Of a stretch of DNA of 64,000 nucleotides, positions 21,001-24,000 are shown one piece after another. Each line of letters begins with the position of its first letter. Position 1 is the first letter of the stretch. The DNA lies in NCBI GenBank assembly GCA_018061105.1, contig JAGOUU010000001.1, forward strand, positions 8,425 through 72,424, in the 5' to 3' direction. Made by a program: the position numbers. This DNA is from Gammaproteobacteria bacterium (GTDB taxonomy: Bacteria; Pseudomonadota; Gammaproteobacteria; JAGOUU01).

Positions 21001-24000
21001 AAGAGTTAAATGTTCTAGTGAGCTGCATAGTAATAAACCCGTGCTGCTCTAAACATTCTCCGCTTTGTTTATATTTTTTAGCTGGTTGAAACCCTGGTAA
21101 AGTATCAAGATAATTGCTTAATGGATCGGTTGCAATCTCGGGCGCATCAGACATATCAACATAGCGATCACCAACTGGAAATTTACGATCAAGAACTATG
21201 GACTCAAGTTTAGATAAAACAAAGTATTTCCTAATAGTATGAGCGTCTAGTAATATATGCCCTTGATCGCGCATATACACTAAGCAACGCATCAGAGCCT
21301 CGACAAAGCTTATTGCGCGACCTTTCCACATATCGTCATTACCAGCACTTTGTTTGCTGCCTGTTTCCATAAGACTGATCACAAGCTGTGCTAGCATATC
21401 GGCAGAGCCAACAGCAAACGGATTCATTGTATTTGATAAGCGATTCTTTTGGGCACCAATTACATCACGGGCACCAGTCATAAAATTAATCAGTAACAAA
21501 TCATCTTCTCTACCTGAGAATCTTGCCATAGCATAGACTTTGGCAAATAAAGAGTTGTCACCTTTACCATCTACATAGATAAAACCACTGCCTTGAATAA
21601 AAGCATTGTAAGCTATGCCTAATAGCATTTCCGTTTTACCGCTTCCAGTTGAGCCGAAGATTAATACGTGTGTACGCATGTCTTCGTTACTGAACCACAA
21701 TTCTTCATTGGTTCTTAAATCATTTCCAAAAAATGCTATACCACCTGCCATTCTCGCTTTGCCAGTACCTGGATTGGGGTCATTATAATCCAATCTGCGT
21801 GAGCTCATTGGTAGACGAAAGGGTAAAGTTGTTTTATGAAAAAATGAAATAAGAAAAGATATAATGCTAAAAGCTAATGCTATATCGGCTAAAGCTGGTA
21901 ACGTAATAGCGACTCCCGCACACATGCCTTGCGCAACTGCTCCGCCTACTGGGCTGGTTAAAAATTCAAAAGTTTTTTTGCCGAATGTGCGTGTATCTCG
22001 GATTAATTCCTGTTGACGTTGTTCATGTCGTCCTTCGATACCACGTAAATATTTGGCCATATAATAAATAATAATTATTTAATTTGTTTAATCATTCTCA
22101 TCTTGATAAATTATTTCTGTTAAAGCTAATTTAAGGGCTTTCACTGCTTCTTCTATCATGGGAGAAATTAATTTGCGTTGCATCCGCGATTCTATACGCC
22201 AATGCGCTATTGCTCCTGCGCATTCTGGAAATGCTGCTCGTCTTCCTACGTTATTGAGCATATACCATAATTGGCGATCGACCGTTTTGAGCCATAAGAA
22301 ATCTGCACAGGCTAGAACTCCTGTGCTGCGGGCTATTTCAAGAGTTCCTGCCATGACAGTCATCACATAAGCATGGCGTTGTTCAACTTTTTTAATTATT
22401 TTACTATTTTTATGTTTAGCTAGTAGTTCTTCTACTCCTGTATAATCAGGAGTATTATTAAACTCAAGAGCTGTATTAAATTGGCGTAAAAATTGGATTG
22501 CAGTCTTGCGATCTTGATTAGCAGCTGCAGCAAAGACAGCAAAAAGAGCTTTTGTATGGATAGGTAATTGATCAGGGCCGTTCCAGATATATCCTAATTG
22601 CATGGCAAAAACTTGACGAGCTCGACTTTCTCTAAGTTTAGCAATTTTACCTATTTCGCCTAATAAAGGATTAGGTTTAGGATTAACAATAATATCGAGA
22701 AGATCATTTTTTTTTGCAAAAGCCATAGGGGTCGAAGCACTTGCCCAAGGGCCTTCATGAATATCTGTATTAATTAAATCTAATTTACTCGGTGGGATAA
22801 TTTGCGGAAAATTAACTTTTTCTTGTAGTCTAAAAGAAGACATTGTAAAACTTTTATTAAATTTATTCGTTGGGTTTTTTATAAATGCCGTAAAGCCTAA
22901 AATGACAGAAATAATAGCTATCGGATAGTTTATATAAGTCCCAGCAGCCGTAACTAATGCAAAAAACTGAGTTTGATCTAACGCAGTAGGGTTATATTGG
23001 GCATTAATAATGTTGCCAATTAGATTAGGATCAACTTTTATAAAATAGCTAGCAAAAATTAATTCATAGTATTTTAATTTGAAGATCAAGGGAAAATAAT
23101 ACTCACGAGTAAACCATAATAAGCACATAACGCCGATACAAAAGGCCATCATGAACATAGGATCATTACCGCTACTACCACCACCTTCTTGTTGTGGAGC
23201 TCCGCCGCCGCCTTGTTTCGCCATATATTATTTATGTAGTTTTAGTGTTGAGCTTTTGCATTGCCGCATATATTTTAGCACGGTACTTATCTTGATGAAC
23301 TGGTGTACTCGAATGATAACTACCAATTCCTTGCCAAATATTTCCTTTCGCTTTATTAATATTATATCTTAAAATCCAAGCACCTACTTGTAAATTAGCA
23401 CAACCGTCATAATAGATTTGCTCAGCAGTCACATAGTTAGAAAACTTTGGTAACCAAATAGAATTAACCTGCATAGGTCCAATGTCGTAAGTGCCATTGG
23501 TGTTAATTCTTAATTCACCTGGATGACCACCTTCGACTTTAAGTATAGCTTTAAGAATAATATCAGGTAAACTAAAACGCTCCGAAGTTTGCGTAATGCA
23601 TTGTTCAGAGATTGGTTGAAATGCAGGATAATTATTAGGTATACTTGGCTGATCTATCATAATAGTAATTTAATAACTAATCATACATTAAATTATCCAA
23701 GGCTAGTAGCCGTGGATTTGGCGACGACTCGGTAAGCTCGCATAGAATCTCAGTCATGCACATAATTCTATAAGCATTCGATACAGAATTATCCATAATC
23801 GCTTTTGTTCCCATCATGCTAGCAGCAAATTCTTCAACTTTAATTCCCAGGCCCGTGCCCAGACAAAAGCAACTAAGCTGATCCGCGCGCTTAATAATTG
23901 CAGGAAACATGCCGTTTTCTGCAAATACTTCTAGAGAAGATATTGGCTTGTTGTTGATAGTAAACTTTAACTGCATTTTATCAGCAACTAGCGCCATACA

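Follow-up and report, generated by a model that had tools for sequence, protein, structure and literature searches.

The window examined here, the whole stretch of 64,000 nucleotides from Gammaproteobacteria bacterium assembly GCA_018061105.1, carries a complete single-locus Dot/Icm system, a type IVB secretion system (T4BSS). The locus is chromosomal, with Rho, lysA and PDH-E1alpha encoded in the same window. Between icmS and icmP/dotM lies a gene for a 142-amino-acid (aa) protein that is confirmed as an SLT-type lytic transglycosylase-like enzyme (hereafter the LT), its activity being predicted from sequence and modelled fold. The enzyme belongs to a long-known kind of specialised murein glycosidase found in secretion and conjugation systems, but its setting is new, and we believe that the gene is a long-term, probably ancestral, resident of the Dot/Icm locus. 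The LT gene and the features of its presumed transcription unit are as follows.

23232..23660, minus strand: LT, a TrbN/EtgA-type single-domain peptidoglycan glycosidase with predicted SLT fold, 142 aa, ATG start
23677..24015, minus strand: icmS, which encodes the adaptor of the T4BSS coupling complex, first gene of the LT operon (Pfam T4bSS_IcmS PF12608, 34.6 bits)
22088..23224, minus strand: icmP/dotM, membrane subunit of the coupling complex (NCBIfam DotM_IcmP_IVB NF033890, 396.6 bits, cut-off 230; Pfam DotM_C)
19715..22060, minus strand: icmO/dotL, type IV coupling protein ATPase (TraG-D_C match; TrbC_conju model, 377 bits)
19007..19684, minus strand: orf225, 225 aa, downstream of icmO and possibly the last gene of the icmS-LT-icmP-icmO transcription unit (no Pfam or NCBIfam family)
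24016..24259, no strand: divergent intergenic region between icmS-LT-icmP-icmO (minus) and dotD-dotC-dotB (plus), presumed promoter region of both units

Only 16 nt separate the icmS stop codon from the LT start, and only 7 nt separate the LT stop codon from the icmP start. These short gaps suggest that icmS, the LT, icmP and icmO are co-transcribed, and a terminator scan found no terminator-like site between icmS and icmO. A counterpart of orf225 (29-30% identity) occupies the same position in two related loci, L006 and L007 (L-numbers denote related loci or contigs that carry LT relatives or were sampled through IcmP, including the canonical-type L090). Promoter matches in the divergent intergenic region are at consensus level and no more numerous than shuffles predict, and its promoter role is presumed from the layout of the genes.

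The original prediction held that the LT sits where icmQ and icmR normally lie, and this agrees with the canonical arrangement as checked on one NCBI metagenome-assembled genome (MAG) locus and the literature. Specifically, L090 has the order icmT-icmS-83aa-57aa-icmQ(PF09475)-icmP-icmO, with IcmQ/IcmR in the same slot between icmS and icmP. IcmQ is a separate protein family, a sequence relationship between it and the LT was looked for and none was found, and the literature describes IcmQ as cytoplasmic. The shared slot does not imply functional replacement. Family searches across the window detected no IcmQ, IcmN/DotK or DsbC-type TrbB.

Family, fold and catalytic residues

The open reading frame (ORF) originally proposed at 23232-23660 is exact to the nucleotide, and every motif quoted for it is present in the translation, namely KVE43-G-G, N53-T-N-G-T-Y-D59-I-G-P-M-Q-V-N66 and Y84-D-G-C87-A-N-L-Q-V-G-A-W-I-L97. 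The proposed SLT lytic transglycosylase core is likewise borne out by a match to Pfam SLT (PF01464) over residues 21-120 that exceeds the gathering score (26.7 versus 21.3 bits; E 4.4e-6). A search of 5.8 billion proteins found 28 homologues of the LT, and most of these carry a precomputed PF01464 match. The best curated family for the catalytic domain is NCBIfam TrbN (NF010463; 96.5 bits, E 2e-27), and the NCBIfam IagB model also matches (49.9 bits). A sequence identical to the LT is present in an NCBI MAG (‘Gammaproteobacteria bacterium’), where it is annotated as a ‘lytic transglycosylase domain-containing protein’.

When 24 of the 28 homologues are aligned, E43, D59, C21 and C87 are invariant and the C-terminal tail is short and variable. 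A search of the PDB with the profile of these 24 sequences matched EtgA alone (E 1.2e-24). The AlphaFold2 model of the LT (pLDDT 91.2, pTM 0.84, residues 1-10 disordered) has a lysozyme-like alpha-helical fold in which helix 33-43 terminates at E43. Its top Foldseek match is again EtgA (TM-score 0.72, root-mean-square deviation 2.1 Å, 34% identity), and further matches include Slt, LtgA, MltC, MltE and g-type lysozymes. Together, the Pfam, NCBIfam, EtgA profile and fold matches place the SLT family assignment far beyond chance.

EtgA (PDB 4XP8, 8URN) belongs to the enteropathogenic Escherichia coli type III secretion system (T3SS) and is the best match of the LT in both sequence and fold. EtgA residue E42 corresponds to E43 of the LT, D60 to D59 in ‘NGTYDIG’, and both disulfide cysteines to C21 and C87; entry 4XP8 is the EtgA D60N mutant and reads YNIG at the aligned site. 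Published work on EtgA describes a conserved disulfide and the lysozyme-like D60, and leaves the choice between lytic transglycosylase and muramidase chemistry unsettled (PMC10880428). By homology, Glu43 of the LT would act as the general acid, Asp59 would provide a lysozyme-like second carboxylate, and a Cys21-Cys87 disulfide probably stabilises the fold. Since Asp59 would assist, the predicted activity may be that of a lytic transglycosylase or that of a muramidase.

The two enzymes also differ. EtgA carries a signal peptide for Sec export (its crystallised construct begins at residue 18) and E-S in place of E-G-G, and it is part of a T3SS in which the inner-rod protein EscI targets and stabilises it, whereas no equivalent partner is known for the LT. 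Nevertheless, EtgA and the IagB/IpgF group would be expected to share a common logic with the LT, with wall cutting localised to the growing machine.

VirB1 of the Agrobacterium VirB/D4 system, a type IVA secretion system (T4ASS), belongs to the same SLT/lysozyme-like superfamily and has the same presumed job, the local opening of murein for a type IV secretion system (T4SS). The original prediction described the protein as VirB1-like, with a T4ASS-style function recruited into a T4BSS, and this part of it is not supported. The NCBIfam VirB1 equivalog model (NF010438) scores 478.4 bits on A. fabrum VirB1 but does not match the LT at E <= 0.01. The alignment to VirB1 that had been suggested as a check was run with BLASTP and gives 25% identity over 95 aa (E 5e-4), with the catalytic Glu region outside the alignment, which stops inside the catalytic domain. 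Agrobacterium VirB1 has 245 aa, begins with a signal peptide and ends in the VirB1* domain, whereas the LT has no signal peptide and lacks the VirB1* half. Membership of the VirB1 family was therefore rejected, the catalytic domain being TrbN/EtgA-like instead.

The relationship to TrbN needs to be read with the limits of the model in mind. RP4 TrbN is represented by the NCBIfam TrbN model, and the LT covers positions 17-133 of its 211, so that about 80 C-terminal positions are missing and the score lies far below the IncP TrbN equivalog cut-off of 246. Furthermore, IncP is a T4ASS (MPF_T) system, unlike the T4BSS of the window. All of the T4BSS-linked LTs tested, including that of IncL plasmids, match the TrbN model partially in the same way (76-97 bits). 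The E-G-G motif occurs in essentially all TrbN-type relatives, with or without a signal peptide, and relatives with E-S/E-T-x-x-N-P form a group apart. It had been remarked at the outset that Gly-Gly rather than Ser follows the catalytic Glu; the motif is indeed present, but it is a trait of the subfamily and no peculiarity of this protein. Because the TrbN-type subfamily normally carries E-G-G, we rejected the idea that this motif, in place of E-S, marks an enzyme that is unusual or inactive.

The LT in related lineages and in other type IVB systems

Every member of the clade with sufficient flanking sequence (L001-3, L006-L012, L014 and L094) has the order icmS-LT-icmP-icmO, and L013 and L086 offer partial views of it that are cut by the contig or locus end. 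These loci come from MAGs or metagenomes of uncultured Gammaproteobacteria or Legionellales and represent at least 12 Legionellales-like lineages. Across them the LT is 49-78% identical to that of the window, the gene after IcmP is 50-86% identical to icmO/dotL in all cases, and neighbouring proteins in these lineages are 38-86% identical to their counterparts in the window. LT identity follows the identities of IcmS, IcmP and IcmO from locus to locus (Pearson r = 0.91-0.95). The GC content of the LT gene, overall and at third codon positions (GC3), is 0.347 and 0.231, beside 0.364 and 0.245 for icmP and 0.366 and 0.246 for icmO. In a neighbour-joining (NJ) tree of 76 sequences and 136 columns with 100 bootstraps, the Dot/Icm-linked LTs form one clade (72% bootstrap).

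Given this native GC3 and the co-divergence with neighbouring genes, the LT appears to have resided in the operon through long vertical descent rather than to have arrived by recent insertion. The gene had originally been described as ‘inserted’ between icmP and icmS. That word finds no support in these two observations, the recurrence of the arrangement elsewhere, or the publication of the same block of neighbours in the IncM plasmid pCTX-M3. In a scan of GTDB representatives that required YDIGPMQ[IV] or N[LIV]Q[VI]GAWIL, no Berkiella LT was present among the best 80 loci (there were 51 lower-ranked matches besides).

Type IVB systems repeatedly have an LT within the coupling-complex operon, and the window is no special case in this. 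When the Dot/Icm proteins of the window were compared by tblastn with 85 loci carrying LT relatives, Piscinibacter caeni, a Burkholderiales MAG and Hydrogenophaga were found to have an LT gene directly upstream of their DotM- and DotL-like genes. In the same comparison, the LT adjoins DotD-DotC-DotB homologues in five Alphaproteobacteria/Proteobacteria MAGs and lies near DotC, DotM and DotL homologues in three Acetobacter species. Listed by locus, an LT directly before a DotM/TrbA homologue occurs in L087, L088, L015, L016, L018, L091 and L095. In L091 the order is LT (43% identical to the window LT, E 2e-41), DotM, an intervening gene, DotL and Peptidase_M15. In L095 (4574-10483) an IcmW homologue, which is 29% identical to IcmW of the window (E 5e-10), precedes the LT, a DotM of 415 aa, a protein of 194 aa and a DotL-like gene.

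The block is also found on plasmids. In a plasmid collection, the LT matches 4,939 records, 4,092 of which are typed as conjugative, and the full-length matches (37% identity) are IncL plasmids of the pOXA-48 type, typed MPF_I. Their gene order is LT, TrbA of 435 aa, a DsbC-family TrbB and TrbC. The best plasmid match is Methylibium RPME01 (a megaplasmid, L088), with the order LT, icmP/DotM (as annotated), a hypothetical gene, a DotL-like gene and a DUF882 peptidase. The IncM plasmid pCTX-M3 carries trbN-trbA-trbB-trbC, in which TrbA is a DotM homologue, TrbB is thioredoxin-like and TrbC is a DotL homologue; its TrbN has 131 aa, a lytic transglycosylase signature and the entry ‘SP: No, TMH: No’ (PMC6112013).

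The IncL/M TrbN proteins of pCTX-M3 and pOXA-48 are, like the LT, single-domain enzymes (about 131-146 aa) with the E-G-G motif and neither a signal peptide nor a transmembrane helix, and their genes immediately precede those for TrbA, the DotM homologue, and TrbC, the DotL homologue. The 37% identity of IncL TrbN spans the full length of the window protein, and its partial match to the NCBIfam TrbN model (85 bits) resembles that of the LT. The systems themselves differ, in that IncL/M encodes a plasmid DNA-conjugation machine with a DsbC-like TrbB between TrbA and TrbC and no IcmS upstream, whereas the window encodes a chromosomal Dot/Icm system with IcmS, IcmW, IcmV and IcmJ. From these sequence comparisons we consider orthology of the LT with IncL/M TrbN to be plausible. 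An identical gene at the same position in Coxiella or Rickettsiella, which the original prediction had named as evidence that would count against it, did not come to light, but a related case did, because the same gene holds this place in the T4BSS conjugation systems of IncL/M.

Several further features of these loci deserve mention. The DotL-like product of L095 has at least 1307 aa and a faint LAGLIDADG match, and the coupling protein may hold an intein. A Peptidase_M15/DUF882 gene follows directly after the DotL-like gene in the Burkholderiales-type T4BSS of L088 (14128-14832) and L091 (from 8732), so the coupling-protein operon of this type contains two wall-active enzymes, the LT and the peptidase. 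Two genes upstream of the LT, these same loci encode a protein of 164/165 aa (L088 7526-8020, L091 1890-2387; 46% identity between the two). It was not counted as IcmS because it has no Pfam match and reaches only 22% identity over 78 aa with IcmS of the window. Pairwise comparison revealed no similarity to the IcmW homologue of L095 either, and the protein could be a divergent adaptor. Finally, two Legionellales MAGs (L021 5926-8414, L037 5232-8399) encode signal-less TrbN-type LTs right behind the coupling protein, in a VirB-type and an F/ICE-type conjugative locus respectively, and the adjacency of LT and coupling protein therefore crosses T4SS classes.

Origin, function and export

The explanation that we favour, and regard as quite likely when taken as a whole, is that the LT is a member of the coupling-complex operon, opens the cell wall for the T4BSS from the periplasmic side, and is an ancestral gene that was retained. 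Made together with the products of icmS, icmP/dotM and icmO/dotL, the enzyme would act in the periplasm, where it would open a local gap in the murein sacculus for assembly of the large T4BSS core complex, by analogy with EtgA, VirB1 and P19. The gene would have been retained from an I-type (MPF_I) conjugative ancestor of Dot/Icm in which an LT stood immediately upstream of the DotM and DotL homologues, and in canonical Legionella- and Coxiella-type loci its position is the one occupied by icmQ and its partner. Judged from gene order, inheritance from such an ancestor together with the DotM-DotL block seems to us rather probable. It is the more parsimonious account, because otherwise separate insertions upstream of DotM would be needed in IncL/M, the Burkholderiales, L095 and the clade of the window. 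Furthermore, IcmQ and DotK are reported to have been gained after the divergence of Berkiella and to have been absent from the ancestor of Legionellales sensu lato (Hugoson et al., PMC8896642). The window encodes IcmS, IcmW, IcmV, IcmC and IcmD and lacks IcmQ and IcmN/DotK, a pattern of presence and absence that fits this reconstructed early ancestor.

A number of observations weigh against one or another part of this explanation. The group nearest to the Dot/Icm clade in the NJ tree (26% bootstrap) consists of LTs from VirB-type and F/ICE-type conjugative loci of Legionellales MAGs, and identity of the LT to all outgroups is 33-42%, which does not discriminate among them. Because deeper nodes of the LT tree are poorly supported (12-26% bootstrap), the case for ancestral retention rests on synteny and not on the gene tree. 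Relatives of the Rho protein of the window (3559-4815) in the same 5.8 billion proteins fall into the clade itself (89-94%) and then a plateau at 82-85%, which gives no placement relative to Berkiella or crown Legionellales, and icmQ and dotK may instead have been lost secondarily within crown Legionellales. R64, the MPF_I prototype, has no trbN homologue, so that an LT is not universal in I-type systems, and the pCTX-M3 deletion study gives no phenotype for TrbN (both PMC6112013). Lastly, no Sec, Tat or lipoprotein signal is present in the LT, and periplasmic action would need another export route.

A rival account of the origin, in line with the original prediction, is lateral acquisition. 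The gene could have come from a conjugative element, of T4ASS type or another, that shared Legionellales hosts, and been placed between icmS and icmP in the ancestor of the clade, in convergence with trbN-trbA of IncL/M. The nearest group is indeed made up of signal-less LTs from Legionellales/Coxiellaceae MAGs (L021, L028, L037, L046, L052 and L059), some of which follow the coupling protein of VirB6/8/9/10-VirD4 (L021) or TraG_N/TraD (L037) loci, and the abundance of plasmid homologues given above portrays TrbN-type LTs as promiscuous accessories. However, we consider this origin unlikely, given that the sister grouping has so low a bootstrap value and that the nearest group, with a mean identity of 38.9%, does not exceed the MPF_I-linked groups (40.0% and 41.7%). 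Independent insertion at the exact spot upstream of DotM is less parsimonious, GC3 and co-divergence show no recent transfer, and the LT is not a member of the VirB1 family.

Two other functions must be set against wall opening for assembly. If the LT were a substrate of the T4BSS, delivered into a target cell to damage, for example, the wall of competitor bacteria or of a conjugation recipient, its lack of a Sec signal would fit, as would its place beside the effector-recruiting coupling complex (IcmS in the window, IcmW in L095). Bacteria-killing T4SSs that deliver wall-degrading effectors do exist in Xanthomonadales. Even so, such a role is highly improbable in our judgement. No immunity-like gene is adjacent, the neighbours at 16 and 7 nt being icmS and icmP, and no translocation domain can be recognised in the short, variable C-terminal tail. 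The gene keeps strictly to its position within the operon of the machine, homologues reside in ordinary conjugative plasmids, and the conserved cysteine pair, disulfide-bonded in EtgA, suits an enzyme resident in the periplasm. That the LT is a general housekeeping murein hydrolase, present in the locus by chance and with no specific role in secretion, is scarcely credible, even though SLT domains occur everywhere and the Pfam match scores only modestly. Its position is fixed in those 12 or more lineages despite the divergence of the neighbouring proteins, its closest relatives outside the clade all lie in conjugation or T4SS loci, and its closest solved structure, EtgA, is an enzyme specialised for a secretion system, with Slt70, MltC, MltE and MltF only distant fold matches.

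For an enzyme that would open the wall from the periplasm, the chief difficulty is thus how it gets there. The highest 10-residue Kyte-Doolittle mean before the domain is -0.48, with no hydrophobic N-terminal segment, and a longer N-terminus is excluded by a TAA in frame 9 nt before the ATG. The N-terminus (MIDQ.P...) is conserved across independent assemblies, so the missing signal peptide is no artefact of annotation. Signal peptides are also absent from 11 other Dot/Icm-linked copies, the Burkholderiales copies and the IncL TrbN copy, and the copies in Alphaproteobacteria/Proteobacteria MAGs have too few residues before the domain to accommodate one. Among MPF_I-linked copies, L048 alone has a signal peptide, whereas one is obvious in nearly all relatives of the E-S type. 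The two cysteines, whose EtgA counterparts are joined in a disulfide, nevertheless argue for an extracytoplasmic site of action.

One tentative solution, which we rate as doubtful but worth stating, is that the signal-less TrbN-type enzymes linked to T4BSSs are exported by the type IVB machine itself, as early substrates that pass through the flanking coupling complex (IcmS/IcmW, DotM and DotL) and then cut the wall for assembly. The precedents known for such self-export lie in type III systems only, in FlgJ of flagella and in HrpH and Hpa2 of plant-pathogen injectisomes.

The surrounding locus and wider meaning

The Dot/Icm genes of the window are arranged in three blocks. The left block, on the plus strand, comprises icmW, three unassigned ORFs, icmV and dotA. 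The middle block, on the minus strand, is orf225, icmO/dotL, icmP/dotM, the LT and icmS. The right block, again on the plus strand, runs through dotD, dotC, dotB, an ORF of 118 aa, icmT, three icmL paralogues, icmK, a short icmE, icmG, icmC, icmD-like genes, icmJ and icmB.

Several of these genes merit comment. DotB (25831-26805, plus strand, 324 aa) matches model positions 4-313 of 358 with 450.7 bits against a cut-off of 463.3, and the ORF of 118 aa between dotB and icmT (26912-27268, plus strand) has a similarly placed small ORF in L001 and L094. The three tandem IcmL/DotI paralogues (27621-28418, 28651-29364 and 29348-30034, plus strand) reach 71-85 bits with the IcmL_DotI model, which is below its cut-off, and no separate IcmM/DotJ was identified beside them. 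IcmE/DotG (31244-32659, plus strand, 471 aa) matches only positions 722-1006 of the 1008-position DotG model, its C-terminal part, and lacks the long N-terminal region with repeats that Legionella DotG has. Around icmJ, three small membrane proteins (34415-34777, 34770-35180 and 35942-36358, plus strand) have marginal DUF6750 matches, one of them also being weakly TraQ-like, and these are probably extra copies of IcmC/IcmD-type subunits.

Between icmW and icmV lies a gene for a protein of 602 aa with PAN/Apple domains (12456-14264, plus strand; PF00024, E 1.2e-10), which its eukaryote-like domain makes a candidate effector. The large flanking ORFs (10862-12430 and 14707-16155) have no family match, and one of them may be an IcmX analogue. 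A GGDEF diguanylate cyclase gene (39499-40311, plus strand) lies directly downstream of icmB/dotO on the same strand, a possible link between cyclic di-GMP and the secretion locus. Farther away, composition shifts sharply within 50000-58500 (GC 0.28 at 50-54 kb and 0.45 at 54-56 kb), where ORFs of 895 and 579 aa have no NCBIfam family and one of 721 aa has a weak match to a daptide-type intramembrane metalloprotease; this region is possibly acquired DNA or a set of effector genes.

It is important to distinguish what is already known from what is added here. The enzyme class is known, and the presence of an LT without a signal peptide at this operon position in T4BSS-type conjugation is in print for IncM. 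In the literature that we searched, no paper names a Dot/Icm-dedicated lytic transglycosylase, describes an LT as a constant member of the effector-type Dot/Icm loci of Legionellales-like bacteria, or mentions an LT in the slot that icmQ holds in canonical systems.

Through the shared operon block of adaptor, LT, DotM and DotL, Dot/Icm systems that translocate effectors are tied to the I-type conjugation systems related to them. The LT also marks an uncultured Legionellales-like group with the gene content proposed for an early ancestor (no IcmQ, no DotK and the LT still there), and thus offers comparative genomics a concrete intermediate state. Its presence sharpens the question of how the very large Dot/Icm core complex of Legionella and Coxiella gets across the murein when the locus encodes no dedicated hydrolase. 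Furthermore, a signal-less enzyme of the disulfide type poses an export problem that can be approached in a tractable model, the TrbN of pOXA-48 or pCTX-M3 in E. coli. If self-export proves true, Dot/Icm-type systems would possess a self-exported assembly factor, and one would then ask what replaced it in Legionella and Coxiella, which carry icmQ at the position of the LT.

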